Assembly (NCBI GenBank): GCA_963816185.1
Contig: CAWFJJ010000025.1
Coordinates: forward strand, 288,001 to 352,000
Length of the DNA stretch: 64,000 bases
Direction of reading: 5' to 3'
Origin: Thermoanaerobaculia bacterium
GTDB taxonomy: Bacteria > Acidobacteriota > Thermoanaerobaculia > UBA5066
Shown: in pieces, positions 9,411-31,989 of the stretch
Position numbering within the stretch: position 1 is the first letter of the stretch
Layout: the number at the start of each line of letters is the position of its first letter
Program-made: the position numbers and the translations under genes
The notes under the pieces: model-generated
What the model saw: only the letters and a program-made list of their open reading frames with translations
Told to the model about the DNA's origin: nothing
Databases searched by the model: none

Positions 9411-11690
9411 TTACCGGAAACCGCGCGCCTCGTCCACGGTGAGCGTCCGGTCGATCGTGGGGACGGCCCCGAGATCCTGCACGGCGCCCGAGGGCCAGCG
9501 GACCACGAGCCTCTCGATCCGTGTCGCCGCGCCGAGACCGAGGTGCACGATCGGGCTGCCCGTCGAGAGATAGCCGCTCGAGGTGCCGCTTTCGCGCACG
9601 AGGACACGACCCCCGGGAAGCGTGGCCCTGACCTGCGCGCCGAGGCCGTCCGTGTTGTCCCTTCCGCGCGTGCCTTTCAGGCGGAGTCTCAGGAAGTGCT
9701 CGGCGCCCGGGTTCCTGCGGCTCCCGAGGAAAAGGGCCTCGGGCGCCTGAACGGAGCGGACGTAGAGATCGAGGGCCCCGTCGCCGTTCGCGTCGAACGT
9801 CACGACGGCACGCCCGTTCGTCTGGAGGTCCAGCCCGTCGAGAAACGCCTGCTCCGCGAAGAGCGGGTCGCTCCCCGGGCCGCGGTTGACGAAGTACGCG
9901 TCGCGCTCGACGCCCTGGACGCCCGCGCCCTGCCGGTCGAACGTCTTCTTCATGCCGATGTAGTCGTCCCAGTACGCGAGCGTCTCCCACCAGAACTCCA
10001 GTTCGCGGTCATGGTCCCGCCCGTCTCCCCACATGCCGTTCGTGGCGTAGAGGTCGAGATTCCCGTCGTTGTCGAGGTCCGCTGCGACGGCGCTCCAGTT
10101 CCAGCCGGCGCGTCCCGCCCCCGAGCGGGCCGTCGCGTCCTCGAACGCTCCACCGGGCGTCTGGAGGAGCAGGGAGTTGCCGCGGCACATCTTCTCCATC
10201 CATGCGATCGCGACGGGGCGGAAGATCCGGCCGGGAAGAGGCACCGGGAGGCCCGGGTACTCGTGCAGGAAGCCCCACTGCGTGTACGTGCCGGTCGTGT
10301 AGAGGTCGATTCTTCCGTCGCCGTCGAAATCGCCCCACGCGGCCGACATTCCGTACGCGCGATCCTCGGCGCCGAGCTTCTTCGTCACGTCCTCGAAGTG
10401 TTTTCCGTCGACGTTGCGGTAGAGATTCTTGAAGCCGAAGTCGTTCGTGACGATCAGGTCGGGTCGCCCGTCGCCGTCGAAGTCCGCGAAAAGGCACGAG
10501 AGCGACCAGCGCGTGGGTTTCGCGACACCCCACTCGGCGGAAACGTCGCGGAAATGGCCCTTCCCGTCGCCCAGGAAGAGGGTGTTGCGGCGGCCGTCGT
10601 TCGCGTCGAAGGGAGGGTCGGGCATCTGCCCGTAGTAATCGCCCGTCCCGCAGATGAAGACGTCGAGATTGCCGTCGCCGTTCACGTCCGCGAAGGCGGC
10701 CGACCGTGTGGGGCCCTCGGTGACGATTCCCGACGAAGCCGTGATCTCCTCGAACGTGCCGTCGCGCCGGTTCCGGAAGAGGCGGGTCGGGCCGAAGGCG
10801 TCCGTCACGAGGAGATCCGGATAGCCGTCGCCGTCGACGTCCCCAGCGGCGACGCCGGTGGCCGCGATCCCCGAGGACTCCGTGGCGGCGAGGCCCGCCT
10901 GCACGGTCACGTCCGTGAAATGGCCCCGGCCGTCGTTCCGGTACAGGATCGACCGCACGCCGTCGCCCACGAAGAGGTCCTCGCTGCCGTCCTGATCGAA
11001 GTCCAGGACCGCGACGCCCGAGCCCGGCCAGATGCCGTCGATGAGGCGGTTCGTCAGCTTTTGCGGCGGATCGCGGCGCGTCGCGCCGAGGCCCGCCTCG
11101 AGCGTCGCGTCGTGGAAGCGGGGACGCGACTCGATTCGGTCTGCTTCGGATGAGATTAGCGAGACCGAGAAAGGCAACGAAGAGGGGAGAAGAGAAGATT
11201 CTTTGAAGGTAAGAGGGGAGGGGGCGGGAGCCGGCGCCCCCGCCGGCGTGTCCGCGTTCGGGAGCAGGAATGCGACCTTGGCGGCGCGTTCGACCCTCGC
11301 CCCATCCGCGCGAATCCCATCCACGACGAAAACGGTCGTCCCCCGCAGCTCCCATCTTTCTAAGAAATTCTTCTCTCTCTCTTTTTCTTTCTTCTTCTCG
11401 ATTACCGGCTTTCCCTCGACATCAAAAGATACGAGCGCGACGCGGTCGAGGTCCTTCCACGCCCAGGAGCGTAAGGAAGCGATGCCCTCCGGATCCCCCG
11501 GCTGCGCGGCGCGGGCGCGCAGCGCCGCGCGCGTTCTTTCGAGCGCGTCGCGATACCGCTCGAGGCGGTGCATCCACGGGATGAACTCGGCGCGCAGGCG
11601 CGGGAGCGAGACGTTCTCGAAGAGCCATATGCCGAGAACGGCGAAAGCCGTGGCCGCCACCGTGGCCGCCCAGCGCCTCCGCCGCGACAT
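9411..11690 (-). CDS. CRTAC1/ASPIC-UnbV family FG-GAP repeat protein, N-terminally membrane-anchored
   Basis: Repeated D.DGDG..DL and LYRN.G.G.F.DV motifs; C-terminal GYLS...VHLGLG...VRWPSG. Confidence 0.9.
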   Translation of the reverse strand: MSRRRRWAATVAATAFAVLGIWLFENVSLPRLRAEFIPWMHRLERYRDALERTRAALRARAAQPGDPEGIASLRSWAWKDLDRVALVSFDVEGKPVIEKKKEKEREKNFLERWELRGTTVFVVDGIRADGARVERAAKVAFLLPNADTPAGAPAPAPSPLTFKESSLLPSSLPFSVSLISSEADRIESRPRFHDATLEAGLGATRRDPPQKLTNRLIDGIWPGSGVAVLDFDQDGSEDLFVGDGVRSILYRNDGRGHFTDVTVQAGLAATESSGIAATGVAAGDVDGDGYPDLLVTDAFGPTRLFRNRRDGTFEEITASSGIVTEGPTRSAAFADVNGDGNLDVFICGTGDYYGQMPDPPFDANDGRRNTLFLGDGKGHFRDVSAEWGVAKPTRWSLSCLFADFDGDGRPDLIVTNDFGFKNLYRNVDGKHFEDVTKKLGAEDRAYGMSAAWGDFDGDGRIDLYTTGTYTQWGFLHEYPGLPVPLPGRIFRPVAIAWMEKMCRGNSLLLQTPGGAFEDATARSGAGRAGWNWSAVAADLDNDGNLDLYATNGMWGDGRDHDRELEFWWETLAYWDDYIGMKKTFDRQGAGVQGVERDAYFVNRGPGSDPLFAEQAFLDGLDLQTNGRAVVTFDANGDGALDLYVRSVQAPEALFLGSRRNPGAEHFLRLRLKGTRGRDNTDGLGAQVRATLPGGRVLVRESGTSSGYLSTGSPIVHLGLGAATRIERLVVRWPSGAVQDLGAVPTIDRTLTVDEARGFR

Positions 11691-13319
11691 CTACGCCGTG
11701 GCTTTCGCGCGTCCGGGCTGAACGGCGGCGATGAAGCGCAGGTTCGGGTTCTCGCGCTCGGCGCGTGCGAGGTGCCATTGGCTCTGGAAAAGGGCGAGCG
11801 GCCGGCCCTCGAGGTCGACGAGACAGGCGACGCTCGGCGGATCGTCGAAACGCTCGCGGTCAAAACCTTCTCCCTCCACCCAGCGCGCGAGCGTGAACGG
11901 CAGGCGGACGTACGAAATCTCGGCCCCGTACTCCGAGCGAAGGCGGTGCTGGATGACCTCGAACTGCAGGACGCCGACGGCGCCGAGCACGGGATCGCGC
12001 TCCATGCGGTCCGAATCGTGGAAGACCTGGACGGCGCCTTCCTCGGAAAGCTGGTCGAGCCCTTTCTTGAGCTGTTTCCTCTTGGCAGGATCGAGCATGA
12101 CGACCCGGTTGAAGAACTCGGGCGAGAAGCGCGGAATGCCGTCGAACTCGATCCCCGGCTCCTCCGCGAGGGAGTCGCCGATGCGCAGGTTGCCCGCGTC
12201 CCAGAGCCCGAGGATGTCGCCGGCCCAGGCCTCCTCGATGAGCGTTCGCTCCTGCGCGAGAAACTGAAGCGGCTTCGCGAGCTTCAGCGTGCGGCCGGTG
12301 CGCGGGTTCAGCACCTCCATGCCGCGCGTGAACTTTCCCGAGACGATGCGCACGAACGCGATCCGGTCCCGGTGCGCGGGGTCCATGTTCGCCTGGATCT
12401 TGAAGACGAACCCGGAGAAGGTCGGCGAGAGCGGGTCCACCTCGCCCGTCGCGGTCTTGCGCGGCAGCGGCGCCGGGGCCAGGTCGAGGAAGCGTTTCAG
12501 GAACGGCTCGACGCCGAAATCGTTGATCGCGCTGCCGAAGAAGACCGGCGTGACCCCTCCGGCGAGAAACGTCTCGCGGTCGAAGCGGTTGCCGGCCGTG
12601 GCGAGGAGGTCCAGCTCCTCGCGGAGCGTCGCATGGGCCTTCGGGCCGATCGTCGAGACAAAGCCCGGATCGTCGATCGACGCCACCTCGACGGGCACGA
12701 CGCGCTCGCCGCGGGGGCCGTCTCCGCGCTCGTAGGCGAGGAGCGTCTTCGCCCACCGGTCGTAGACGCCCTTGAAGTCCGGGCCCGATCCGATCGGCCA
12801 CGTCACGGGATGGCACGGGATGCCGAGAACGCGCTCGATGTCGTCCATGAGATCGAGCGGGTCCATGCCGGCTCGGTCGAGCTTGTTCATGAAGGTGACG
12901 ATCGGGATCCGCCGCATGCGGCAGACCTCGAAGAGCTTGATCGTCTGAGGCTCGACGCCCTTCGCGCTGTCGATGAGCATCACGGCCGCGTCGGCCGCTG
13001 CGAGCGTGCGGTACGTGTCCTCGGAGAAGTCGTTGTGCCCCGGCGTGTCGAGGAGGTTCACGTTGTGGCCCGCGTACGGGAACTGCAGGACGCTCGTCGT
13101 GATCGAGATGCCGCGCTGCCGTTCCAGCTCCATCCAGTCACTCGTGGTGTGACGGCTCGCGTTCCGCCGCATCCGGACCGAGCCCGCGAGGTGAATGGCA
13201 CCGCCGTACAGGAGCATCTTCTCCGTAAGCGTCGTCTTGCCCGCGTCAGGATGCGAGATGATCGCGAAGGTGCGCCGGCGGGCGACCTCGGCGGCGAGGG
13301 TGCGGGACGGTTCGAGCAT
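11691..13319 (-). CDS. prfC: Peptide chain release factor 3
   Basis: RRRTFAIISHPDAGKTTLTEK, DTPGH.DFSEDTYR, NKLD, FKIQANMDP.HRDR, GAVGVLQFEV. Confidence 0.96.
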   Translation of the reverse strand: MLEPSRTLAAEVARRRTFAIISHPDAGKTTLTEKMLLYGGAIHLAGSVRMRRNASRHTTSDWMELERQRGISITTSVLQFPYAGHNVNLLDTPGHNDFSEDTYRTLAAADAAVMLIDSAKGVEPQTIKLFEVCRMRRIPIVTFMNKLDRAGMDPLDLMDDIERVLGIPCHPVTWPIGSGPDFKGVYDRWAKTLLAYERGDGPRGERVVPVEVASIDDPGFVSTIGPKAHATLREELDLLATAGNRFDRETFLAGGVTPVFFGSAINDFGVEPFLKRFLDLAPAPLPRKTATGEVDPLSPTFSGFVFKIQANMDPAHRDRIAFVRIVSGKFTRGMEVLNPRTGRTLKLAKPLQFLAQERTLIEEAWAGDILGLWDAGNLRIGDSLAEEPGIEFDGIPRFSPEFFNRVVMLDPAKRKQLKKGLDQLSEEGAVQVFHDSDRMERDPVLGAVGVLQFEVIQHRLRSEYGAEISYVRLPFTLARWVEGEGFDRERFDDPPSVACLVDLEGRPLALFQSQWHLARAERENPNLRFIAAVQPGRAKATA

Positions 13320-13321
13320 CC

Positions 13322-15496
13322 TCAGCGTTTTTGCGCGTCCCTCGGCGCCTCCGGTGGGACCGCCGTCTCGGAGAGCGCGAACGCGTATTCGTCCGCGCGC
13401 GAGGCAACCGCGGACTTCACGAGATCCGCGCCGCCGTGGCCCGCGTGCCTCTCGATCCTGAGGAGCACGGGCCCGTCCGTCGATGCCGCCTGCAGCGCGG
13501 CCGTGAACTTCCGCGCGTGCATCGGGTCCACCCGGTCGTCGCTGTCGGCCGAGAGGACGAGAACCGCCGGGTATTTCGTGCCGGCCTTCACGTGCTGGTA
13601 CGGCGAGTACGCCAGGAGCGCCCGGAACTGCGCCGCGTCGTCCGCCGAGCCGTACTCGGAGATCCACGTCTTGCCCGAGCCGAAGAGGTGATAGCGCACC
13701 ATGTCGAGGAGCGGCACGGCGCAGAGGGCGACGCGGAAGAGCTCGGGGTGCTGCGTGATCAGCGCGCCCACCAGAAGCCCGCCGTTCGAGCCGCCTCGGA
13801 GAACGAGACGCGAGGGCGAGGTCCATTTCTCCTTCTCGAGGTACTCGGCGGCCGCCGCGAAATCGTCGAAGACGTTCTGCTTCTTGAGCAGCATTCCCGC
13901 CTCGTGCCAGGCCTCGCCGTACTCGCCTCCGCCGCGCAGGTTCGGGACGGCATAGACGCCTCCCCTCTCGAGCCACGGGATGACCCCGGAGTTGAAGCTC
14001 GGCGTCAGCGAGATCAGGAAACCCCCGTAGCCTTCGAGCATGCATCTCTCCGAGCCGTCGCGCTTGAGACCCTTGCGGTGGACGATGAACATCGAGACGC
14101 GCGTGCCGTCTTTCGAGGGGTAGAAAACCTGCGACACCGTGTAGGGCGTGAGGTCGGCCTGAACCTTGACCTGGGAGTAGAGCGACGTCGCGCCCGTCTT
14201 CACGGACGTCTTGTAGATCGTCGTGGGCGTCGTGAACGACGTGAAGGCAAAATACGCGTCGTCCTCGTCGTCGCGGCCCACGAGGCCGCGGACCGTTCCG
14301 ATCCCGGGAAGCGGGACGTCGCGCACGAGCGTCCCGTCGGTCTCGTGGATCTCGAGGAGACTCGCAGCGCTTCTGAGGTAGCCGAGGGCGAGCCGGCCGC
14401 CCACGATCGCGTACCCCTCCAGCGTCGCATCTTTGCGCTCCGGCACGATCTCCTTCCAGAGAGCGCGGTCACTCTTCGCCGGATCGACCGCGAAGACGCG
14501 CCCTTTCGGCGCCCCGTCGTCCGTCTTGACGAAGATCCTGCCTCCGAGCGCGTCCACGTCGAAGTGCGCCTTGATCCCGACGGCGAGCGGCGTCCACGCC
14601 GCGGCCTTCGGGTCGGCGGCGAGATCGCGGAACCACACGTCCTGGGACGTCCAGCCGTGCGAGAGCACGAGAAAGAGGAAACGTCCGTCGCGCGTCAGGT
14701 TCGCGTTCTGGAAGACCGTCGGATCACCCGTCTTCGCCTTCACGACCGCGTCGGTCTTCGGGTCGGTCCCGAGCCGGTGCAGGCGCACCTCGGCGTAGCC
14801 GGGCCGGTCGGACGCGGGGATCTTCGGGTCCACGGGGAGCCATGTGTAATAGAAGGCCTTGCCGTCCGGCGTCCACGAAGGGTTCGCGTACTTGGCTCCC
14901 TCGATGACGTCCACATCGGAGACCTTGCCGGTCGCGACGTCCATCACGTAAAGCGTCGCCTCGTCGGAGTTGTTGATCTTCTTCTGGTAGGCGACGCGCG
15001 TCCCGTCCCAGGAGACCTGCCACCCGCCGAGGGAGGCGCTGCCGTCCGCGCTCCAGGTGTTCGGGTCGAAGAGCACCTTCTCGGCACCGTCGGCGCCCTC
15101 CCTCCAGGTCACGACGCTCTTCTCCTGGTTCGAATGCCGCCGCGTCAGGAAGAACCGCGATCCCCGGTGCTCCGGGGCTGAGACGAAATCGATGTAATAG
15201 AGCTCCTTCAGCCGCGAGGCGATCGCGTCGCGCCCGGGCAGCGACGCGAGGCGCTGGCGCGTGAGGTCGTCCTGCGCTTTCATCCAGGCCTGCACCTCGG
15301 GAGACTTCGCGTCCTCGAGCCAGCGGTACGGGTCGGGCACCGGGACGCCGTGCAGGACGTCCGTGACGTTCACCCTCCGGGTCGGAGGATAGGGCGCTTT
15401 CGACGCGGTTTCGGCGGCGCGGGCTCGGGGCGACCACGCGAGCGCGAAGGCGAGAAGGGGAAGGAGCAGGGACAGGCCGTCGGCGGGCTTCTTCAT
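13322..15496 (-). CDS. Prolyl oligopeptidase (S9A), secreted
   Basis: DPYRWLED, GGSNGG nucleophile, DDRV, AGHG; signal peptide. Confidence 0.95.
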   Translation of the reverse strand: MKKPADGLSLLLPLLAFALAWSPRARAAETASKAPYPPTRRVNVTDVLHGVPVPDPYRWLEDAKSPEVQAWMKAQDDLTRQRLASLPGRDAIASRLKELYYIDFVSAPEHRGSRFFLTRRHSNQEKSVVTWREGADGAEKVLFDPNTWSADGSASLGGWQVSWDGTRVAYQKKINNSDEATLYVMDVATGKVSDVDVIEGAKYANPSWTPDGKAFYYTWLPVDPKIPASDRPGYAEVRLHRLGTDPKTDAVVKAKTGDPTVFQNANLTRDGRFLFLVLSHGWTSQDVWFRDLAADPKAAAWTPLAVGIKAHFDVDALGGRIFVKTDDGAPKGRVFAVDPAKSDRALWKEIVPERKDATLEGYAIVGGRLALGYLRSAASLLEIHETDGTLVRDVPLPGIGTVRGLVGRDDEDDAYFAFTSFTTPTTIYKTSVKTGATSLYSQVKVQADLTPYTVSQVFYPSKDGTRVSMFIVHRKGLKRDGSERCMLEGYGGFLISLTPSFNSGVIPWLERGGVYAVPNLRGGGEYGEAWHEAGMLLKKQNVFDDFAAAAEYLEKEKWTSPSRLVLRGGSNGGLLVGALITQHPELFRVALCAVPLLDMVRYHLFGSGKTWISEYGSADDAAQFRALLAYSPYQHVKAGTKYPAVLVLSADSDDRVDPMHARKFTAALQAASTDGPVLLRIERHAGHGGADLVKSAVASRADEYAFALSETAVPPEAPRDAQKR

Positions 15497-15544
15497 CCGG
15501 GAAACGTAGCATGACGGGCGCGGCGGCGTAGACTCGGGCCTCGA

Positions 15545-15841
15545 ATGGTCGCAGATCCTTCCTCCCGCGCGTGTTTCCTCTGCGGCTTTCCGGCCTCCGT
15601 GGGGGAGGAGAACGCCCTTTTCGCATCCTCCGAGCGCGGATTTTCCGTGGACTGTGAGGAATGCGGTCCCTACGCGGTCACGCCCGACGCGATCCACCGG
15701 CTCGAGGTGCGCGCGGTCGCGCGGCCTGGCGTGCGGTTCGAGATCTTCCGCCTGCGCTCGAACGGGCACACGCCCCGGCCGACGGTAGACCTGAAGATGG
15801 TCGATCACTTCTGTACGGGCTATACGCCGATCCGCGGCTGA
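15545..15841 (+). CDS. Small hypothetical zinc-ribbon-like protein
   Basis: CFLC...CEEC pairs in a 98 aa ORF. Confidence 0.6.
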   Translation: MVADPSSRACFLCGFPASVGEENALFASSERGFSVDCEECGPYAVTPDAIHRLEVRAVARPGVRFEIFRLRSNGHTPRPTVDLKMVDHFCTGYTPIRG

Positions 15842-15879
15842 CCCCCGGCCGCCGGGCCGGTGCGCTAAAGTTCCGCCCC

Positions 15880-16314
15880 ATGAGCAGGGAACACCCCGAC
15901 CACCACGACGCGGACCTTGCGTTCCGCGCCTACGAGCTGCGCCGCGAGACCGTCATGCGCGACTCGCGCAACGCGATCAACCGGGACTTCTGGCCGAAAT
16001 CGTTCGCCGACGTCCAGGCCGTCACGAAGAGCGACCATCCGCTCAACGCGGCCTGGCGCCAGACGACGACGTACTGGGAGATGGTCTACGGCACGGTCAA
16101 GCACGGAATCGTGAACGCGGACTACTTCATGGAATCGAGCGGCGAGGGGATGCTCCTGTTCGCCCGCGTCGCCCCTTACCTCGAGGAATTCCGCCGCGAG
16201 CTGTCTCCTTACGCGTTCCAGAACGCCGAATGGGTGGCGAAGAACACGGCGGTGGGCCGGAGGCTGTTCGCCATGTTCGAGGCGCGCGTCCAGAAGATGC
16301 TGGCTGCGAAATAG
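15880..16314 (+). CDS. Conserved-looking hypothetical protein (DUF4760-like)
   Basis: YELRRE..MR..R and A.WRQ..TYWEM pattern; family assignment from memory. Confidence 0.65.
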   Translation: MSREHPDHHDADLAFRAYELRRETVMRDSRNAINRDFWPKSFADVQAVTKSDHPLNAAWRQTTTYWEMVYGTVKHGIVNADYFMESSGEGMLLFARVAPYLEEFRRELSPYAFQNAEWVAKNTAVGRRLFAMFEARVQKMLAAK

Positions 16315-16394
16315 AGGCGGACGAATCGTCCGGCCGGGCGAAACCCGCGGGGCCGCCCCGCGTATCTCCAGGCGTGAAAAGTCGGTTTCGTCCC

Positions 16395-16450
16395 TTGACA
16401 GGTCCGGGGGCGGGCGCTACTTTTCCAGCACATGCTAGTTTTTTAGCATG
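16395..16450 (+). promoter_or_regulatory. Sigma70 promoter and BlaI-family operator
   Basis: TTGACA(16395)-N17-TACTTT, then perfect inverted repeat CATGCTA-N6-TAGCATG (16431-16450). Confidence 0.75.
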
Positions 16451-16500
16451 GCCCCTCTCACCCTGAAGATCTTCTCTAGAAGCGAACGGAAAGAAAAGCG

Positions 16501-16902
16501 ATGCCGAAAGCGACGACCGTTCCCGACCCGCTCCACCTCTCCCGCCGGGAGCGTCAGATCATGGACATCCTGTATCGGGAGGGTCGGGCCGCGGCCGGCG
16601 AAGTGCTCGAGCGGCTTCCGGACCCTCCGGGCTATTCGGCCGTCCGCGCGATGCTGCGCGTGCTCGAGAACAAGGGCCACCTGATGCACGTACTCGAGGA
16701 GGGACGCTACGTCTATCGTCCGATCGTCCCGAGGAACCGGGCGCGCCGCTCGGCTCTTCAGAACCTCCTCCAGACGTTCTTCGAGGGCTCGGCGGAAAAG
16801 GCCGTCGCCTCGCTCCTTCTGGAATCGAAGAATCCGCTGAGCGAGGACGAGCTGGAGCGGCTCTCCCGCCTCATCGCCGACGCCCGCAAGGAGGGCCGTT
16901 GA
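16501..16902 (+). CDS. BlaI/MecI/CopY family repressor
   Basis: LSRRERQIMDILY, YSAVR..LR.LE.KG, L..TFFEGS. Confidence 0.93.
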   Translation: MPKATTVPDPLHLSRRERQIMDILYREGRAAAGEVLERLPDPPGYSAVRAMLRVLENKGHLMHVLEEGRYVYRPIVPRNRARRSALQNLLQTFFEGSAEKAVASLLLESKNPLSEDELERLSRLIADARKEGR

Positions 16903-16903
16903 C

Positions 16904-19144: not shown

Positions 19145-19194
19145 GCGGGTCCGCGCGGACCTCGGCGCTATCCTCCCGCTTCCGGGGAGGATTC

Positions 19195-21468: not shown

Positions 21469-21475
21469 TCCGCTC

Positions 21476-21925
21476 GTGGCCCGACGCATCGAGCCCAGCC
21501 GGAAGTCTCCCGCGGAGCGGCTGGACGACCTTCTCGCGGGGCACCGCGACGCGCCGTTCCCGGAGGGTGCGGCGAAATACCTCGAACGCGCGCTTTCTTC
21601 CAGCGACTCGATGCCGAACGCGGTGAAGTTCTTCGGCTGGGCGTTGCTCGTGCCCGCGTCCGCCGCGCTCGGTTCACCCGAAGGTGAGGACCGCGCTCTC
21701 GAAGCGCTCGCCGAGGCCGAACGCTACCTTCCCGTGGCGCAGGGCGAGCTGGGCGCGCTCTTCGCCCGCGAGTGCGCCGGGCTGACCTGGCTCGAGACGG
21801 GGATATCGCTCCTCACGGATCGCGCGGCCTTCGACGAGGCCCTGCGGCTGTGCGACTTGGCACTTTCCCTCGGCTGCGGCCGCGCGTACGAGGCAAAGAA
21901 GAATTCGCTCCTGCGGATGGTGTAA
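21476..21925 (+). CDS. Hypothetical helical (TPR-like) protein
   Basis: Co-oriented ORF 7 nt after M28 stop; helical Ala/Leu/Glu-rich composition. Confidence 0.6.
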   Translation: MARRIEPSRKSPAERLDDLLAGHRDAPFPEGAAKYLERALSSSDSMPNAVKFFGWALLVPASAALGSPEGEDRALEALAEAERYLPVAQGELGALFARECAGLTWLETGISLLTDRAAFDEALRLCDLALSLGCGRAYEAKKNSLLRMV

Positions 21926-21978
21926 GAGCGCGGGGTGAAGAGCGGGCGTGCTAGAATCGAGCTGATCACGGCGAAAGC

Positions 21979-23988
21979 ATGAACCGTTGGGTGGTTGCCG
22001 GGCTCGTTACTCTCGCAGCAATTTGCCCTTCCGAAACGACCTTGGCGAGCGGATCATCGTGGTCGGGCAATGGTCCGTTCGGTGGGTTCGTCACTACAAT
22101 CGCTGCGGCTCCGACAAATCCTCTGGTCGTCTTCGCGGGCACCTCGGCGGGCGTCTACAAGTCTGTTGATGGAGCGCATTCATGGATTGGCCCTGACGCG
22201 GGGCTTCCTTTGGCACGGGTGTCGGCACTCGCGGTCGACCCTTCCAATGCCGGAATAGTCTTCGCGGCAGTAGGCGACCTTTATCGCTCTACGGACGGTG
22301 GAGCAACCTGGATTACGGTCTATACCCGCGGTCTCGACGGCGAACCCACGGCAGTAACAGTCGACTTCCGCGACGGCAATCGCGTTTACGCGGGCACGGG
22401 CGATGGGTATTTCCTCAGGAGTGTCGACGGCGGCGAATCGTGGACGACTCGTTACACAGGCACGCCTTACGTCAACGCCATAACGGTAAGCCCGACCTCC
22501 GGTTCGATACTTCTCTGTGGGGGCGGGGTCTATCGAAGCGACGACGATGGCAACTCATGGGCCGTGCTCACCGACAGATACGACTCGTATAGCATGACTG
22601 TCCTACCGACGACGCCCGAGACAATTTTGCTTGGCGACGCCGGCGGAAGTGGAATCCAGAAGAGCACGGACGGTGGCAAGACCTGGAGAATCTCGAGCAA
22701 TGGCCTGCCCTTCAAACCTATCGGCTTCTGCGCCAGCTGTACTCTGCCTGTCACCGCCCTTGGGGTCGATCCCGACTCCAGTCATCTCTTTGCCGGCCTG
22801 TATGGCGGGGGTGTCTTCACGTCGTCGGACGGCGGTGACAACTGGACGCCTTGGCCGAGCGGCGTTCCGCCCGATGCCGGCGTTTTGAGTTTCGCTTTTT
22901 CCCAACAATTCACACTGGTCGGCACTGCGGATGCTGGTGTGTACACGATCCGAGGCCGCATCGCCTCGCCGTCAAACGAGGGCATGAAAGCCTCGAATGT
23001 ATACGGCATCGCAGTGACTCCGTCGTCAGTTGTGTTTGCGGCGAGCGGCGGTGGGATCTCTCGGAGCAGCGATCGTGGCAGATCCTGGACGACCGCCACA
23101 AGCCCAGGCCCGGGAACTGTTATCCCAGGTATTTGGGCTGATCCAAGTGACGATGGGCTTTTGTTCGCGGCCTCGGAATACGGCGGCCTGCTTCGAAGCG
23201 AGGACGACGGCCTATCATGGACTTTGGTGGTCGAAGATGGACAGTTCTTCCAGGTCCCATGTGTTGCATTCGATCCCAACAAGCCGAATCGAATATTCGC
23301 CGGCACCGCGCCCTTGCCCTTGTCACACGAGCCGTTGAAGATCCTCGAAAGTGACGACTACGGGGCGACATGGGTCATCGTCGTGGCCAGTTCGTCGACC
23401 GGATCAGTACTCTGGCTCGGCTTCGATCCACTCGAAAATTCGACCGTCTTCGCGCGGGCCGAATGGGGCCTTCTTCGGTCGACCGATAGCGGCAAGACGT
23501 GGGCTTCTCTCGACTATACCTCCTGGGATGTCGCTTGCTGGGCTCCTCAGGCCGTGGTCTTGAATCCCTGGGGCGAGCACGCCATCTACACTGCAGTCGT
23601 CGGCGGACGCGTCATCTGCCGGAGTGCCGATTCTGGTCTTACCTTCCAACCGATACTTTACGATACGAATCACCGCCAACTCACCTCTCTTCTGGCTGAC
23701 CCTCTCCGACCTGGGACGTTCTATGCCGCGTCCACCTACGTTCCAGGTAGCGGGGTAGAGAACGCAGTTCTTGTCAGTTTGGATCACGGGGGCACCTGGT
23801 CCGAGATCCGGTCGGGCTTTCCCGGAACGGAGGTCTTGTCAATGGCCCTGGATGCCTCCAGCTCGACGCTGTTCGCCGGCACCGCCGGGACCGGGGCTAT
23901 CTCGATGACGTTGTCCGCCGGACATGAGAAGGTCACGCTCGCGCCCAATCTCCCCCCACCGGTGAAACGAAGAGCACCACAAAACTAG
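21979..23988 (+). CDS. Secreted BNR/Asp-box beta-propeller protein (YCF48/VPS10-like)
   Basis: More than ten S.D.G.(T/S)W repeats; signal peptide; visibly lower GC than neighbours. Confidence 0.88.
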   Translation: MNRWVVAGLVTLAAICPSETTLASGSSWSGNGPFGGFVTTIAAAPTNPLVVFAGTSAGVYKSVDGAHSWIGPDAGLPLARVSALAVDPSNAGIVFAAVGDLYRSTDGGATWITVYTRGLDGEPTAVTVDFRDGNRVYAGTGDGYFLRSVDGGESWTTRYTGTPYVNAITVSPTSGSILLCGGGVYRSDDDGNSWAVLTDRYDSYSMTVLPTTPETILLGDAGGSGIQKSTDGGKTWRISSNGLPFKPIGFCASCTLPVTALGVDPDSSHLFAGLYGGGVFTSSDGGDNWTPWPSGVPPDAGVLSFAFSQQFTLVGTADAGVYTIRGRIASPSNEGMKASNVYGIAVTPSSVVFAASGGGISRSSDRGRSWTTATSPGPGTVIPGIWADPSDDGLLFAASEYGGLLRSEDDGLSWTLVVEDGQFFQVPCVAFDPNKPNRIFAGTAPLPLSHEPLKILESDDYGATWVIVVASSSTGSVLWLGFDPLENSTVFARAEWGLLRSTDSGKTWASLDYTSWDVACWAPQAVVLNPWGEHAIYTAVVGGRVICRSADSGLTFQPILYDTNHRQLTSLLADPLRPGTFYAASTYVPGSGVENAVLVSLDHGGTWSEIRSGFPGTEVLSMALDASSSTLFAGTAGTGAISMTLSAGHEKVTLAPNLPPPVKRRAPQN

Positions 23989-24015
23989 TCAGGTGTCGGG
24001 AGCGTGTCCTCGGAA

Positions 24016-26049
24016 CTACTCCCACCACCCGTTGACGTCCACGATGAGGTGGACCGAGCCGGATGACAGGTCGTTCGTGAAAGCCACGCCGCCTGTCCCG
24101 TCCCGCGCGAGGAGCAGCATCGAGTTGTTCGCGCGAGTCCGGCCCGCGCTGAAGCTCAGAGTGTTCGTGCCGGGCGCCTGAGCGAGGTCCGCTGGGAACG
24201 CGACGAGGCTGCCCGCGGCCGTCGGGCCTGTGATCGTCACGTTCGCCGAGACGGACTTCGCGGTCGGCGGGATGCCGCACGTCCCCGTGAGGACGAAGTC
24301 GCGCCGGACTCCGGCGACGAGCGCCGGGCCTCCGAGCAGCCCGTTCGCGTTCCGCGTGTCGAGGATGCGGCATGGCACCGTCGTGTGGAACGACGTGCCG
24401 GAAGGGGGTGGGGCGGCAGCAAGAGACGCTACAACGAGCGTCGCCGAGCGGGCCGGAAGAGCGAGCGTCAGCGTCCCGCCGGACGGTGACGCGCTTCCGG
24501 CTGCCGAGAGCCGCGAGGCGCCGGAAAAGCGCCACAGGGAGGCCGTGCCGGGGAGGCCGCCCGCGACGGTCGCCGCGACCGTCTGCGTCGCGATGTCCTT
24601 GTTGAAGAGGAGGAGATAAAGCGTATTTCCGCCCGCGCCGCCACGAACTGCGTACGCGCCGACCAGGTCCACGTTCGCGCTCGTGGCGCGCACGCTGTCG
24701 CCGCTCACCTGCGCTCCGGCGCCGTCGTAGTTGCGGTAGAGGAGGAAGGCGTCCTCGGTCTTCGTGTTGTCGGCGGGCGCGACCCACCGCGTGGCGAGAT
24801 CGACGCCCTCGCGTCCGAAGATCGCGAGAGCCTCGGCCTGCGCGAGAGCGCCGCTGATCCCGTCGTCGGAGCCCCAGTTGTACTCGCTGATCGCGAGCTT
24901 CGTGCCGGGGTAGTGCGCCGCGATCCACGCCTTCATCCGCGGGATCAAATACACGGCCTGGCCGACGTCCGTGCCGATCCACGATTCGTCGAGATACGTC
25001 GGGTCGTAGAGGCTCTTGAGCGTCCGGAGCCGGAGCGCCGACGTCGCCGTCGACTCGTCGTTCGTGAGCGCGACGCCGCCCGCCTGCGGGTAGTAGTGGA
25101 CGTCGAGGGTGTCGAGGAGGCGCGTCCCGTGCGCGGTCTCCCACGCCTTCGCCTGGTCGAGGTACCACGGGAGGAAGTCTTCGCCGCCGTGCGCGGTGCG
25201 GTCCGGGCCGGGTCCGCAGCCGTCCGCGCCGGAAAAGAAGTACGCGCACCATCCCCAGACCGCCGGGCCGAGGATCTTCGCGCCGGCGTCCTGGGCCTTG
25301 ATCGCGGCGCCGACCGCGGCGGTCTTCGACCACAGCTCGTCGTAGGTCGTTCCGGCCGGGTGGACGTCGTGGTGCGTCGAGTTCCAGAGCATCGGCTCGT
25401 TGTCGAGGGCCCAGAGCCGCACGCCGCCGGCCGCCGCGGTGCCGACACGGCCGGCGATGTGCGCCATCCAGCGCGTCACGAACGTCGCGTCGATTGTCTT
25501 CGACGTGTCCGCCGGATCGTTCCCCGTCACGTACGAGCCGTCCGGCTTCACGCCGTTGCCGGCGTCGGGGTTGCACCAGCTCGCGTTCCCCGTGGCCGAG
25601 CACTCGGTCTGCTGCTGCGCGCCGTACTTCGACACCGAGAATCCCCAGCGGCGGACGCGGTCGATCGGCGTCCAGCCGATGAGCGGTACGGTGATCAGCG
25701 CCTGGCCGGAGGCGGCGCGGATCTCGTCCACGAAGACGTCGGCCGCCGAGCCGTTCGGGAGGTTCGCGGGGTTCGCGCTCCCGGCGTAGTTCGTGAAGAA
25801 CCAGTCGCTCGCGCTGTTGTTCGTGTCGGTCTCCCAGTTGTACCGGGTCGTCGCGTTGCCGCCCCAGCGGCGCACGGGGACCTTCAGGCGCGACATCTGT
25901 GCGGCCGTTCCGTAGTTCATTCCATAAATTTGCGGGCTGACGGCGTGACGGTCTGCGTTCGGATCGACACTCACCGCAATGGTCGCGGCCCCGGACGGTG
26001 CGGCCGAGAGAAACATCGCCGCGACGACGAGAAGAACGCGGGTCTGCAT
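24016..26049 (-). CDS. Glycoside hydrolase family 44 with C-terminal PCR..DTR beta domain
   Basis: RWGGNATTRYNW, LDNEP.LW.STH.DVHP, LAISEYNWG; signal peptide. Confidence 0.88.
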   Translation of the reverse strand: MQTRVLLVVAAMFLSAAPSGAATIAVSVDPNADRHAVSPQIYGMNYGTAAQMSRLKVPVRRWGGNATTRYNWETDTNNSASDWFFTNYAGSANPANLPNGSAADVFVDEIRAASGQALITVPLIGWTPIDRVRRWGFSVSKYGAQQQTECSATGNASWCNPDAGNGVKPDGSYVTGNDPADTSKTIDATFVTRWMAHIAGRVGTAAAGGVRLWALDNEPMLWNSTHHDVHPAGTTYDELWSKTAAVGAAIKAQDAGAKILGPAVWGWCAYFFSGADGCGPGPDRTAHGGEDFLPWYLDQAKAWETAHGTRLLDTLDVHYYPQAGGVALTNDESTATSALRLRTLKSLYDPTYLDESWIGTDVGQAVYLIPRMKAWIAAHYPGTKLAISEYNWGSDDGISGALAQAEALAIFGREGVDLATRWVAPADNTKTEDAFLLYRNYDGAGAQVSGDSVRATSANVDLVGAYAVRGGAGGNTLYLLLFNKDIATQTVAATVAGGLPGTASLWRFSGASRLSAAGSASPSGGTLTLALPARSATLVVASLAAAPPPSGTSFHTTVPCRILDTRNANGLLGGPALVAGVRRDFVLTGTCGIPPTAKSVSANVTITGPTAAGSLVAFPADLAQAPGTNTLSFSAGRTRANNSMLLLARDGTGGVAFTNDLSSGSVHLIVDVNGWWE

Positions 26050-26076
26050 ACTCGTAGTGTCGGAGCCTCTCACGGG

Positions 26077-28789
26077 TCAGGACTTTCGCGCCGGCCGGCA
26101 GAAGACGAGGGACGTGTCGCGCGCGTAGAGCACGGGCACGGCCCAGTCCATGGGCTCGGCTCCTCTTGCGTACGAGACGGCGACGCGCGCTTCGCGAGCG
26201 GCCGCGCCCAGGCTGTGGCCTTTCGCGAGCGCCCAATAGAGATGTCGGGCGAACGCCGTGGCGGACGTGTCGAGCACCTTGTACTGGTTCGCGAGCACGG
26301 CCGGGATGCCCCCCGCGGCGAGAGCGGGCGCGACGCCGCGCAGGAACTCCGTCCGTCCTCCGCGCCCCGTCTCGCACGCGTTCAGGACGACGAGCTTCAA
26401 CGCGCGTCCGGCGAGGAGGCGAAGAACGCGATCCGTGTCGACGGCAATGGAACGCCCGCGCGTGTCCACGAGGAAGAGGGAGCCCGTCTTTTCCTTTTCG
26501 TCGAAGGTCCCGTGCCCCACGAAGTGGAGGACGTCGACGCGGCCCGCCGAGAGGCGCCGGTGGAGGCCCGCGGGCGAGGTGGACGCGAGGACCTCGAGAC
26601 GGACGAGGCCAGCCTTCACGAGCGGCTGGAGAGCGGCCCGAATGGCTGACGCCTCCTGCCGCGCCGCCACGGGCGCGGTGTCGTGCGGCTCGGCGAGGGC
26701 GACGAGGACGTGGAGCGGCCCGCGGCCCGGCGGAGGCGCGGTGGAGGGCGGCGCCCCGAAGACGCCGCGGACGAGGACGGCGTCGTCCGCGAGGAAGCGC
26801 CTCCGGGAGGAATCCCAGGCGAGCTCCCACGGCTTGTCGGCGATCCAGTCGAGACCCGGCGTGAAGACGACCTCGAGCGCGCCCTTCGCGGCCGTGCGCG
26901 CCTCGTCCCAGAGGCGCCGCACGGCTCCCGGGAAGAGCGTCTCGAAGAGGACGGCGCCATATTCGCGGAGCTCCTTCGCGGCGGGAAGGGGCTCGCCCCC
27001 GCCGCCGTCGAGGGCCGCGAGGACGCGCTCGTGCATCGCGATGATGACGCGCATGCGCTCTCCCGCGGCGCCGCCCTTCGTCTCGAACGGCTCGACGACG
27101 CGCGCTCCTCCGAAAGTCGCGAGAAGGTGCGTGGGCTCGCCTCCGCGGCCGCCCACGAGCACGAGCTCGAAACGGCGCGCGGCGCGCGGCGCGCGAGCGG
27201 AAGCGGAAGAAGAAGAGGGAGATTTTGCTGAAGAGGAAGAGGACGACGCGCTTCGCGCGGAATATTTCTTCTGATATGCGGCGGCCGCTTTGCGGCCGCC
27301 GATAGTAGAAAATCTTCTCCCCGGATGTCCGGTGTCAAGGGTCTTCAACCGCTGCGCGGCGCGCGAAGCGCGCCCTTGACTCCGGACATCCGGGGAAGAC
27401 GTGCTCTTCTTCTCTCTCTTTCCTTCTAAGAAATTCCTAATTCCCTCTCTCGTCTCCTTCTGGGCAAACAAGTTCAAATGGTGAACGATCGCGCCCGCGC
27501 CGGCGTTGCCGCCCGGCCCGAACCGAATGACGTCTTGCTCGGGCACCGGAGGGGCCGCGCCGAGGCGCGCGCCGCCCTCGGTGGGAACCACGAGGTCGTT
27601 CGGATCCTCGAAGAAGACTCCCGCGGCGGCGTCGAGGAGCCTGCGGGCCGCGCTGCCGCGCGGCTCGTAGCGCGCGACGGCGGCGGCGACGTCGTACGGC
27701 CGCGCCACGCCCGCGTTCAGCTTCTCCAGGAATCCACCGGCAGGATCCATCGCGGCGATTCCCGGCAGCGTGCCGCCGGCGCGGGAGGCCATCCACACGA
27801 GCGCCTCCGCCGCGAAGTCGAGCGAGAAGGCGAGAGAGCCCCCGGGGAACATCTCGCCGAGATTGGCGAGCCATGCGGCGAGCCGGTCCCAGCGCGCGGG
27901 CGAGGCGAGAGGAGTGCCCTCGTTCGGCGACGCGACGAGGAACACGCGGCTCACCCGTGGGAGCTCCCGGCGAGGAGGCGAGAAGGCGCGCGACGAGGCC
28001 GCCGCGCGAATGCGTCACGACGTCGAGTGAGGAGCCAGGAGAGAAGCCAAGAGACGAGTCGCGAAGGGCCTCGAGCATGGCCTTCACGTTCTCGCCCGGC
28101 GAGCGCCCCACGGTCAGGTGGTTGAACGCGAAGACACGCCCTTCATAGAGCTTCGAGAGAGCGTCGAACGCGCCGTCCTGCGCCAGGTCGGAGAACGCCG
28201 CGGAAGCGTGCGAGAACGTGCCGTGGAGAAAGAGGAGGTTCCTCGCCTGTGTCCGCGGCAGAGAGGACTTTGCGACGCGTGACGCGACGAGCTTCCCCGC
28301 AGAGACCGTGAGGCGCACGAGACCGAGCGGAACGTGGGCTTCTTCGAAACGCTTCTTCTCCCAGGCGCGCGCGAGCGCCGGCAGCAGGGCGCCGGCCACC
28401 GCTCCGGCGACCCGCAGGAAGAAGACGCGGACGACGGCGCCGGGACCGCGGCGGGCGGTCGGCTGAGGCGCGAGGCGCACCTCGAATCGATGAGACCCTC
28501 CTTCGATCGCGCTCGGGGCGTGAAACGTCAGTGCGCCCGACGTGTGGCGGGCCACGAGGACCCAACCCTCGGACCCAGGGGCTTCGACCCGGGCGTCGAG
28601 AGAACCGGGTCCGGCCCGCGCGCCGCGGAGCGGCCGTGCGGAGCGAACGCCTTCGAGCACGAGCTGTCCGTCCTCGAGGACGCGCGCGAGAAACGGGTCT
28701 GCCTCGGCCGCCCGCGCGCGTGCTCCCGCCGCGGGGGAGAGGACTTCCCAGCCGGGGCTCGCCGTGACGCGGATGCGCGGAGGCGGCAT
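26077..28789 (-). CDS. Alpha/beta-hydrolase (lipase-like) + CHAT protease fusion (frameshift ~27970)
   Basis: FLHGTFS, THSRGG, ASPNEGTPLA, NDLVVPT, HH in the N-half; PWE, LHFVGHG, LNACE in the C-half. Confidence 0.82.
27247..27395. repeat. Compound palindromic (REP/MITE-like) element inside CDS linker
   Basis: 23-bp inverted repeat 27319-27341 / 27373-27395 (22/23 match), 10-bp hairpin 27279-27301, GCGAAGC-type minihairpins 27247-27259 and 27358-27374. Confidence 0.75.
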
Positions 28790-31897: not shown

Positions 31898-31931
31898 GCG
31901 TGCGTGCCGTTATACTCGAATCCGCAAAGAC

Positions 31932-31989
31932 GGCGATGGAGTCCGCCGCAAACGCCTTCGGGCTGATGACTCCTACCTCAGGTAGGAGT
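31932..31989 (+). ncRNA. Fluoride riboswitch (crcB motif) with SD-sequestering expression platform
   Basis: GGCGATGGAGTCCGCC..AAACGCC-TTCG-GGCTGATGACTCCTAC matches the consensus; pseudoknot GGAGTC/GACTCC; alternative hairpin ACTCCTACC-TCA-GGTAGGAGT. Confidence 0.92.

Follow-up and report, generated by a model that had tools for sequence, protein, structure and literature searches.

Convergent pairs of a short oriented DNA motif overprinted on genes and intergenic regions in a genus of Thermoanaerobaculia

RESULTS

Two AT-rich patches lie in frame within unrelated genes

The window analyzed here is a stretch of 64,000 nucleotides (positions 288,001 to 352,000 of contig CAWFJJ010000025.1, assembly GCA_963816185.1) from a bacterium of the class Thermoanaerobaculia (phylum Acidobacteriota), a lineage that is uncultured and known only from metagenome-assembled genomes (MAGs). 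Two of its genes contain AT-rich patches carrying copies of a short, oriented DNA motif, here called the arm, which is the subject of this report. Patch 1 lies in a gene for a membrane-anchored, CRTAC1-like protein with FG-GAP and UnbV_ASPIC domains (9411 to 11690, minus strand, 759 amino acids [aa]), as judged from its open reading frame, translation, Pfam matches, and ortholog frames; patch 2 lies in a minus-strand frame (26077 to 27954, 625 aa) that encodes the end of a hydrolase-like domain (Pfam DUF7379), a linker, and a CHAT domain. An earlier note, made from the letters of the window alone, had placed the two patches at these sites, each with purines to the left and pyrimidines to the right and with the frame unbroken, and coordinates, composition, and open frames all agreed with this description. 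In patch 1 the purine run (11150 to 11198) is 84% purine and the pyrimidine run (11367 to 11412) is 87% pyrimidine, and in patch 2 the values are 82% (27196 to 27245) and 83% (27404 to 27462). The arms with their tracts have GC fractions of 0.38 to 0.57, compared to 0.68 for the patch 1 gene and 0.71 for the patch 2 gene, and over 300 bp the GC fraction dips to 0.603 and 0.623, respectively. The frames read EKKKEKEREKNFLE (patch 1) and GIRNFLEGKREKK (patch 2) and then continue into Ser-rich runs, matching the K/E/R-rich and Ser-rich runs that the note described. The identical 13-mer that it reported, TTCTAAGAAATTC, was found at 11358 and 27424 and at no other place in the window, against a shuffle expectation of 0.08, and none of 100 shuffles reached two copies. 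Two further proposals of the note did not hold: the smaller patches at about 28030 to 28060 and 61020 to 61070 are short purine or pyrimidine runs and are not among the arm-profile matches at an E value of ≤1 in the window, where only the right arms of the two patches matched, and the unit is not a patch of about 280 bp but a short arm that occurs in convergent pairs.

From left to right, patch 1 begins with an outer homopurine tract (11150 to 11198), whose minus strand encodes a Ser/Leu/Pro-rich run and whose length varies among orthologs in a slippage-like manner. This is followed by the left arm (11199 to 11226, plus strand), which consists of a variant core, TTCTTTGAA (11199 to 11207), and GGTAAGAGGGGAGG and encodes PLTFKE on the minus strand; by an inter-arm segment (11227 to 11348, minus strand; GC fraction, 0.73) that includes GTTVFVVDGIRADGARVERAAKV and is for the most part ancestral coding sequence of the gene; by the right arm (11349 to 11370, minus strand), in which an exact core, TTCTAAGAA (11358 to 11366), lies within the 13-mer and the minus strand encodes NFLE with a rare TTA codon; and by an outer homopyrimidine tract (11371 to 11412) that encodes EKKKEKEREK on the minus strand. 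The right arm matched the arm profile at 11351 to 11376 (E = 0.0019), and the left arm was recovered as its partner in a relaxed pair search (C25:299199, spacing 159). In nine ortholog fragments from the same genus both arms lie at the same places, with PLTF- or PFKE-like sequence at the position of the left arm in seven of the nine, and the lengths of the K/E and Ser tracts vary, the K/E run of the right arm ranging from 0 to about 14 residues.

Patch 2 is built from a homopurine tract (27196 to 27245) that includes a degenerate arm-like stretch (27219 to 27236) and encodes a Ser-rich run on the minus strand, a nested repeat of another kind, and an arm (27404 to 27462, minus strand) with pyrimidine-rich flanks and an exact core TTCTAAGAA at 27424 to 27432 (the 13-mer extends to 27436), whose minus strand encodes a peptide that includes REGIRNFLEGKREKK and which matched the arm profile at 27421 to 27450 (E = 0.00083). 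Orthologs have a degenerate arm containing TTCAGCAAAAT plus a pyrimidine tract at the position of the homopurine tract. The patch 2 element was found in the linker between the hydrolase-like and CHAT domains in all 12 orthologs of the genus that have both anchors, and exact TTCTTAGAA was found in 9 of the 12. Outside the genus no ortholog was found at an E value of ≤1e-40, and there is therefore no empty site with which patch 2 can be compared. The nested repeat (27264 to 27404) is palindromic, with a 24-nt stem (27318 to 27341 and 27373 to 27396; 96% complementary), and is translated in frame. It belongs to a family with a conserved sequence of about 135 to 140 bp (dozens of blastn matches on 11 contigs, 72 to 95% identity) that is unrelated to the arms, has a second small GC hairpin besides the 24-nt stem, and was present in only 4 of the 12 patch 2 orthologs (L045 to L048), those of this genome and its three closest relatives. 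Given its conserved full-length sequence, this family looks like an ordinary miniature inverted-repeat transposable element (MITE) or repetitive extragenic palindromic (REP) element. A small GC palindrome, CGCGC(G/T)(A/T)(A/C)GCGCG, recurs at 27247 to 27259, at 27360 to 27372 in the loop of the nested repeat, and in patch 2 orthologs.

The patches are not assembly artifacts, since the frames of orthologs from independent assemblies stay open through both sites: single open frames of 732 to 777 aa were found in 7 full-length genomes for the patch 1 gene, and single open frames of 848 to 1107 aa were found in 10 genomes for the patch 2 gene. Public sequencing runs were also searched, and the best of 20 matching runs held 0.38 of the sampled words. 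Four (X1, X2, X3, and X19) were compared as low-depth Logan contigs, among which no piece was shown bridging either patch and no joints, strand-changing or otherwise, were listed at the patches; a single nucleotide was missing from one contig at 27347, and there were breaks in the pyrimidine tract at 11368 to 11399, where contigs seem cut. The DUF7379/CHAT gene itself is split in the source genome by a frame change at about 27960 (minus-strand frames 27437 to 28789 and 26077 to 27954), corresponding to residue ~285 of the ortholog in genome G011, so that the upstream part of the gene lies in another frame. The orthologs have one open frame of 848 to 1107 aa; the split reflects either an assembly error or a pseudogene in this genome.

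The repeated unit is an oriented arm that occurs in convergent pairs

The source genome (5.09 Mb in 30 contigs; about 67% GC; 94.9% complete, with a stated contamination of 3.4%) was scanned for the motif, as the earlier note had proposed. What is repeated is an asymmetric arm, about 25 to 45 nt long, made up of a purine-rich run, (A/G)ATTTCTTnGAAGG(T)GAA, and a second purine-rich run; read inward, its consensus is a purine-rich run of ~20 nt, aGATTTCTTAGAAGG, and tgaa.gggg. Exact cores numbered 337 (165 TTCTTAGAA and 172 TTCTAAGAA), with 17 exact 13-mers, and these cores were 60- to 90-fold over-represented relative to a third-order Markov model, which makes them the top 9-mers of the genome after one homopolymer artifact. 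The poly-T and poly-A words at the head of the 9-mer table come from contig C10 (1147 to 2239), where a 1028-nt homopolymer followed by a 65-nt one is almost certainly an assembly artifact. The TTCT-N-AGAA dyad to which the note had drawn attention is the core of the signal and is very strongly enriched genome-wide. Among single-base variants of the 11-mer TTCTTAGAAGG, none was found at C3 or G7, and position 6 could also be C (93 copies) or T (21 copies), so that the core is a TTC-N3-GAA dyad. These counts were made with exact and relaxed words; a first nhmmer profile (375 matches at an E value of ≤10) was too loose for counting, and a second gave 138 matches at an E value of ≤0.01. A sub-family of arms has C at its center: TTCTTCGAA is present in 287 copies, 88 of them after ATT, and is often followed by TGGTTAATA rather than by GGTGAA, and at one junction a center-C arm occupies the orthologous site of an A-type arm in other genomes.

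Paired arms face inward in nearly all cases. Among consecutive exact sites, L (TTCTTAGAA) was followed by R (TTCTAAGAA) 63 times, compared to 5 times for the reverse order, and pairs of TTCTTnGAA at 40 to 230 bp were inward-facing in 172 cases and outward-facing in 6. With up to 2 mismatches allowed in 12 positions, an inward partner was found for 216 of 336 arms, versus 5 of 336 in the outward control (one of the 337 arms, within about 320 bp of a contig end, was left out of this search). The relaxed search yielded about 160 pairs, 63 of which lie within called genes when pairs with inter-arm cores of <30 nt are left out. The spacing of pairs ranges from about 45 to 230 bp; 16 of the 42 intergenic exact pairs are spaced 74 to 78 bp apart, and the 16 exact pairs in coding sequences (CDS) are scattered over 65 to 174 bp. 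All coding and intergenic counts depend on our own crude codon-usage caller (4006 genes, 84% coding). Convergent pairing of arms accounts for the purine-left, pyrimidine-right layout of the patches and for its symmetry under reverse complementation.

On the large contigs, 243 units were separated by a mean gap of 17.4 kb. The coefficient of variation of the gaps was 1.28, with more short gaps than an exponential distribution would give, which indicates mild clustering in what is a crude test on contigs only, and no periodic or regular spacing of these units along the contigs was seen. The idea that the patches mark a chromosome-organizing site is not borne out by this irregular spacing, and a consensus of 337 copies does not fit a local mutational footprint, which the earlier note had also entertained. 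The number of arms per 100 kb was 0 on contig C18, 1.1 on C6, and 2.1 on C12, versus 4 to 12 on the large contigs. These three arm-poor contigs have a lower GC fraction (0.64 to 0.66) and could be foreign DNA or bin contamination.

Constraint appears to act on nucleotides, and partner arms are independent

Called CDS contain 155 of the 337 arms (46%), none of them in a stop frame, and 54% of the arms lie in the 16% of the genome called noncoding (181 noncoding places). Within CDS, the arms are read in all four stop-free frames (39 FLE, 40 LR, 54 SK, and 22 LR), which argues that the constraint is not on the peptide. Codon usage points to the DNA as well. TTA accounts for 0.24% of the Leu codons; it occurs 359 times, and 39 of these occurrences fall in TTC-TTA-GAA. 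The TTA of the right arm in the CRTAC1-like gene was kept in 6 of the 7 orthologs having the codon (the partial orthologs L009 and L010 being left out), compared to a third-position identity of 0.60 at conserved residues of the same gene. At two further genes, the CTT at the R-arm site of IspE was kept in 22 of 22 genomes of the genus, with drift at the fourth base of the core, and the exact 9-mer was kept in 9 of 12 patch 2 orthologs. Across the genus, then, arms appear to have stayed at the same orthologous sites, together with their rare codons.

The two arms of a pair vary independently of each other. Complementarity within pairs over the 14 nt inside and outside the core equaled that of shuffled partners (0.390 versus 0.390 and 0.329 versus 0.338, respectively), and the variable center bases of partner arms were independent. 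This lack of covariation gives no support to selection for a hairpin, to template-switch copying, or to recent transposition of a palindrome, and it is consistent with two oriented copies, independent of one another, of a site recognized by its sequence.

Inter-arm DNA is unrelated among copies and often ancestral

Among 18 canonical inter-arm cores, the central 25 nt had a mean pairwise identity of 0.37 and a maximum of 0.68, and a blastn search of the genome found no second copy of the inter-arm DNA of patch 1. The DNA between the arms is not part of the repeat, and inside genes it is often the ancestral coding sequence of the host. In patch 1, five order-level orthologs that lack both arms keep the sequence G-x-V-x-F-x-V-G-G-F-R-A/S-D-G-A/S-RVER-S/A-A in between; what is new is therefore the arms with their tracts, placed around a core of ancestral coding sequence. 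In HisA, no ortholog was found in five arm-free genomes at an E value of ≤1e-20, and solved HisA/PriA structures were used for comparison instead; here the arms lie 76 bp apart, flank the ancestral ...ARVVVGS... strand, and add 1 and 8 residues.

The most complete series was obtained for IspE, using 10 arm-free genomes (5 from other genera of the family and 5 from other families; L202, L204, and L217 had no regular-expression match in the series). At the R-arm site, all 22 genomes recovered from the genus have ATTCACCTTTCnAAGA...ATCCC (IHLSKK/RIP). The arm-free genomes have L-x-K-R/N-I/V-P at this site in 9 of 10 cases (7 LEK, e.g., ATCCGCCTCGAGAAGAGGATCCC) and LEKRTP in the tenth, with no indel in any of them; the changes include synonymous ones (ATC to ATT and CTC to CTT) toward rare codons, and one of four genomes of the sister genus has an arm-like intermediate. 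At the L-arm site, 5 of the 10 arm-free genomes and 3 of 4 genomes of the sister genus (g17) have TTCGAGGAG (FEE), and the genus itself has GATTTCTTAGAAGGTGAAGAG (DFLEGEE) or near variants (FSEGEE, FFESEE, and FQERKD), a growth from TTCGAGGAG to GATTTCTTAGAAGGTGAAGAG in which 2 to 10 residues were gained. The inter-arm sequence is kept in the arm-free orthologs. This series shows arms overprinted, at the level of the DNA, on sites that were already near-cognate. Sua5 has a similar, nearly substitutional arm that adds 2 residues (only two of five genomes matched). Alignment of orthologs, which the earlier note had suggested for telling insertion from substitution, thus revealed both. Taken together, the comparisons indicate that arms originate from base substitutions at near-cognate sites, some of them synonymous and toward rare codons, together with short, slippage-prone insertions, and that the homopurine tracts of these insertions appear to grow and shrink by slippage.

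The motif is abundant in one genus, sparser in its sister genus, and nearly absent from other relatives

The 11-mer TTCTTAGAAGG was present in all 26 further genomes of the genus (g1) at 37 to 267 copies each, compared to 201 copies in the source genome, and in 8 of 8 genomes of the sister genus at 1 to 31 copies, one of which (G053) has pairs 62 to 78 bp apart. Copy numbers were only 0 to 1 per genome both in 8 more genera of the same family (26 genomes) and in two further families of the same order (12 genomes; 10 of 10 without the unpublished G019 and G024). A reversed-word control gave 0 to 6 copies per genome. Acidobacteriota/Thermoanaerobaculia MAGs accounted for 61 of the 80 pattern matches listed; the other 19 were single matches in unrelated, mostly AT-rich taxa. 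No description of the motif was found among the papers listed by literature searches, which did not reach supplementary files.

Units turn over at syntenic sites

In an 18-kb syntenic block compared among 15 genomes, arms recur at the same gene junctions and differ between genomes. At one junction, the spacer is 31 bp long without a unit (2 genomes), 50 to 85 bp with collapsed or mini units, 110 to 220 bp with full units, and 1364 bp with an unrelated insertion sequence (IS). The cores at this junction are homologous and shrink to 24, 37, 75, and 110 bp, and the arms persist. At another junction, close relatives retain only GATTTC joined to a pyrimidine tract. Such joints, together with the shrunken cores, show that units are lost by deletion between the arms.

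Two other features were noted in this block. The IS-like insertion, at the junction of L032 (G011) that matches L016:9980-10200, is 1.36 kb long, has inverted ends of ~21 nt and a duplicated CTAG, is unrelated to the arms, and sits where other genomes carry an arm unit. An AT-rich intergenic block that includes TATTTAACATAATAAATATTATCGGAC (L016:7480-7680; C28, about 475480 to 475680) is almost invariant in the 15 genomes while its surroundings vary. Possible identities for this block are an operator, a promoter, and a small RNA, and arm units flank it in several genomes.

DISCUSSION

The feature is real, is lineage-wide, and acts at the DNA level. In its general form, the proposal of the earlier note that a DNA-level signal is overprinted on unrelated coding sequence is supported by the genome-wide enrichment and by the ortholog alignments. 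The reading that we prefer, to which we give about an even chance of being correct, is that the arms are paired, oriented recognition sites for a putative lineage-specific DNA-binding or DNA-processing protein and that they are passively translated where they fall in genes. Each arm would be an oriented recognition site and the convergent pair would be the working unit; the arms themselves are installed at the DNA level, by multibase substitution at near-cognate sites plus short insertions. Their translation into E/K-rich...FLE(G/R) and PSKK/LSKK...Ser-rich peptides would be a passive by-product that is tolerated in loops and linkers, and the reader would either give a benefit to the lineage or else the arms would spread by selfish drive. 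We infer both the existence of the reader protein and any function it may have.

Several observations weigh against this interpretation. No reader protein or enzyme was identified, and function is at this point pure inference; one unit per 17 kb is far below the density of known uptake sequences or of the highly iterated palindrome HIP1; and the coding and intergenic assignments rest on the crude gene caller. At the IspE site, the exact 9-mer was found in only 1 of 22 genomes, as the fourth base drifts as the third position of a Ser codon, so that the full core is not under uniform selection. In the pairs of UvrA, RNase R, and a pyridine-nucleotide oxidoreductase, the enclosed peptides are unlike the host family and may be inserted wholes. 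Finally, at some intergenic orthologous sites a whole unit (tract, arm, core, arm, and tract) is present or absent depending on the genome, and copy number varies 7-fold within the genus, both as a mobile element would show.

Those last points lead to the main rival explanation, which we consider unlikely but of real weight and which the earlier note had raised as a decayed mobile repeat: a nonautonomous mobile element similar to MITEs or to Rickettsia palindromic elements (RPEs), in which complete units bounded by long, imperfect terminal inverted repeats would move into intergenic DNA and, in frame, into genes. Arms that flank ancestral sequence would then be remnants of two separate insertions or of later rearrangement. 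A dispersed, lineage-restricted family with such variation in copy number, filled and empty intergenic sites, cores that shrink while arms stay, a canonical intergenic class of pairs at 74 to 78 bp, a bias of the arms toward noncoding DNA, and the nesting of another repeat family in patch 2 are all in line with this view. It is opposed by cores that are unrelated among copies and by partner arms that are no more alike than random arms. In addition, no target-site duplication was found in 58 pairs extended outward (median complementarity, 3.5 nt), filled and empty junctions gave no consistent duplication, and no unoccupied TTCTTAAGAA palindrome was found in the genome. No transposase was apparent between long-range arm pairs, where the six translated genes were of the housekeeping type, although no systematic comparison of transposase ends was made. 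The genes themselves also speak against insertion of whole units, as the R arm of IspE arose without an indel and the cores of HisA, IspE, and the CRTAC1-like gene are ancestral.

Known families of small repeats also fit the arms only in part. REPINs consist of two inverted copies of a short conserved sequence around a spacer that is less conserved; like the arms, they are scattered over the genome, mainly outside genes and often directly behind them. The arms share with REP elements, REPINs, and bacterial interspersed mosaic elements (BIMEs) the inverted doublet of a conserved short sequence with a spacer, but they form no hairpin beyond the 9-nt dyad, 46% are genic, and their spacers are unrelated. 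A link to the REP-associated tyrosine transposase (RAYT) was considered and rejected, because the distribution of Pfam PF01797 (Y1_Tnp) is opposite to that of the motif: there were 0 matches in the source genome, matches in 2 of 18 genomes of the genus, and matches in 6 of 6 genomes of an arm-free family (f2; the six include the unpublished G019, which is also listed among the genomes with a CRTAC1-like ortholog). RPEs, as set out in a review, are palindromic elements of ~150 bp and of defined families that are inserted whole and in frame in housekeeping genes and are translated as an additional surface peptide (PMC10969869). The in-frame genic copies described here recall them, both being short, dyad-symmetric repeats translated within unrelated housekeeping genes. 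Compared to RPEs as that review portrays them, however, only the arms of ~25 to 45 nt are common to the copies here, the inter-arm DNA is unrelated and often ancestral, and one arm arose without a change in length; moreover, RPEs belong to Rickettsia and the arms to the acidobacterial class Thermoanaerobaculia. MITEs such as Correia, ERIC, and BOX elements, as far as the same source portrays them (PMC10969869), share terminal inverted repeats, small size, an intergenic bias, and occasional intragenic copies with the arms, which differ in having neither a conserved interior nor a target-site duplication; no parent IS was found for them.

A more far-reaching version of the preferred reading, which we regard as improbable and put forward tentatively, is a DNA-writing or DNA-marking system, in which an enzyme or recombination pathway would install convergent arms of ~25 nt around 45 to 230 bp of preexisting DNA and a partner protein would read the pairs. 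Writing would occur by short-patch conversion of near-cognate sites, even within the essential genes ispE and hisA, and the pairs could be read for self-recognition, for targeting of repair or recombination, or for local wrapping of DNA with an optimum of ~76 bp, among other purposes. If true, such a system would amount to a novel type of genome-wide sequence signal, distinct from transposons and uptake sequences alike.

A self-propagating or selected short word, comparable to uptake signal sequences and DNA uptake sequences (USS and DUS, respectively) or to HIP1, appears quite unlikely to us. Such a word would accumulate by point mutation and recombination and would be favored by a function in uptake, repair, or the nucleoid; this explanation overlaps the recognition-site reading but names a specific driver. 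The equal numbers on the two strands (165 and 172), the lineage specificity with a weaker signal in the sister genus, the substitutional origin at near-cognate coding sites, the retention at orthologous sites, and the lowest arm densities on the lower-GC contigs C18, C6, and C12 all agree with it. To our knowledge, however, strict convergent pairing, a 74- to 78-bp mode, and long homopurine tracts are not described features of uptake sequences or HIP1, which counts against such a word, as does the lack of periodic spacing. Uptake sequences, in the part of the literature on them represented by PMC2817400, are likewise lineage-specific, over-represented words that are equal on both strands and of substitutional origin, with genic copies at poorly conserved, tolerant positions, and their counts of 1,471, 765, and 1,892 per genome put the arms about 10- to 20-fold lower in density. 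Roughly one uptake sequence per kilobase is not approached here, and the arms form obligate convergent pairs with a preferred spacing and homopurine tracts. HIP1 (GCGATCGC) of cyanobacteria, as reported in PMC5861425, is 15- to 300-fold over-represented (60- to 90-fold for the arms), and is similarly a hyperabundant dyad word, long without a known function, that is conserved both inside open reading frames and in between them and across genomes. Whereas HIP1 is a symmetric 8-mer that occurs about once per gene and is periodic, the arms are asymmetric, ~25 nt long, aperiodic, and arranged in oriented pairs about every 17 kb. Each of the known systems considered here failed on at least one defining feature, and none covers the combination of an asymmetric arm, convergent pairing at ~76 bp, an unrelated or ancestral interior, and substitutional overprinting of essential genes.

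It is very unlikely, in our judgment, that the unit acts at the level of structure, that is, that the arms pair in RNA or single-stranded DNA as a hairpin serving as a bidirectional terminator, a Rho entry site (with a CU-rich tail), an RNase III site, or a cruciform. The arms did pair in the minimum-free-energy fold of 58 of 58 exact pairs, a pyrimidine-rich tail follows the unit on both strands, and in codirectional spacers the called end of the upstream gene is ≤55 bp away for 13 of 19 "++" units and for 9 of 11 "--" units. Closeness to stop codons may, however, be an artifact, as the arms carry stops in two of the three inward frames, and the absence of covariation and of excess complementarity beyond the core gives no indication that pairing is selected. 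Inter-arm cores were not more structured than shuffled sequences (median fold z score, -0.66 for intergenic pairs and -0.29 for CDS pairs), and no Rfam 15 family reached its gathering score over the patches (best subthreshold scores, 13 to 24 bits versus cutoffs of 40 to 160). Placement relative to promoters or terminators was also rejected, since units track the length of spacers and not their type (observed versus expected: codirectional, 30 versus 25; divergent, 7 versus 10; convergent, 5 versus 6), and early indications from start-codon distances did not generalize. Furthermore, about 63 pairs are located within genes, and a terminator at such places would be detrimental.

That the convergent arms are sites for a master invertase that turns the intervening segment around and thereby recodes genes or switches them is highly improbable. 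Inverted repeats of one consensus do flank unrelated segments at many loci, and each arm has a dyad core. Inversion in silico, however, kept the frame in only 7 of 16 CDS pairs, breaking the other 9, versus 62% of random segments of the same length, and it introduced stops in both patches, which led us to reject this candidate; in HisA and IspE, the inter-arm segments are conserved sequence of the catalytic fold. The 74- to 78-bp mode is also shorter than any invertible segment that we know of. Finally, there is next to no chance that the patches are fortuitous linkers of low complexity under protein-level selection or a product of misassembly, since, even though they do lie in linkers and encode low-complexity peptides, the same word is read in four frames, occupies 181 noncoding places, is 60- to 90-fold enriched, and recurs at the same sites in many independent assemblies.

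If the recognition-site reading is right, an abundant soil and sediment lineage maintains several hundred oriented motif pairs that are the most over-represented words of its genome, at the cost of rare codons and of extra loops in IspE, HisA, UvrA, RecG, and AddA-like helicases. Such a cost would imply an undescribed reader protein and a benefit, or else selfish drive. The arms would then be a third case, after HIP1 and uptake sequences, of a short word that reshapes coding sequence, with the addition of convergent pairing and a preferred spacing, and the strictness of that pairing, together with the spacing, makes the question testable. The arms also provide a clean genus marker, and in MAGs they give rise to contig breaks and to insertions of low complexity; they are a warning that a patch that is AT-rich and in frame within a GC-rich genome is not necessarily an error or foreign DNA.

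Two other features of the window were noted. A region of ~2 kb at 21900 to 24000 has a GC fraction of 0.58 to 0.63, well below that of its surroundings. A fluoride riboswitch (RF01734) was found on the plus strand at 31923 to 31982 (52.2 bits; gathering score, 34), upstream of a plus-strand open reading frame that starts at 31995.

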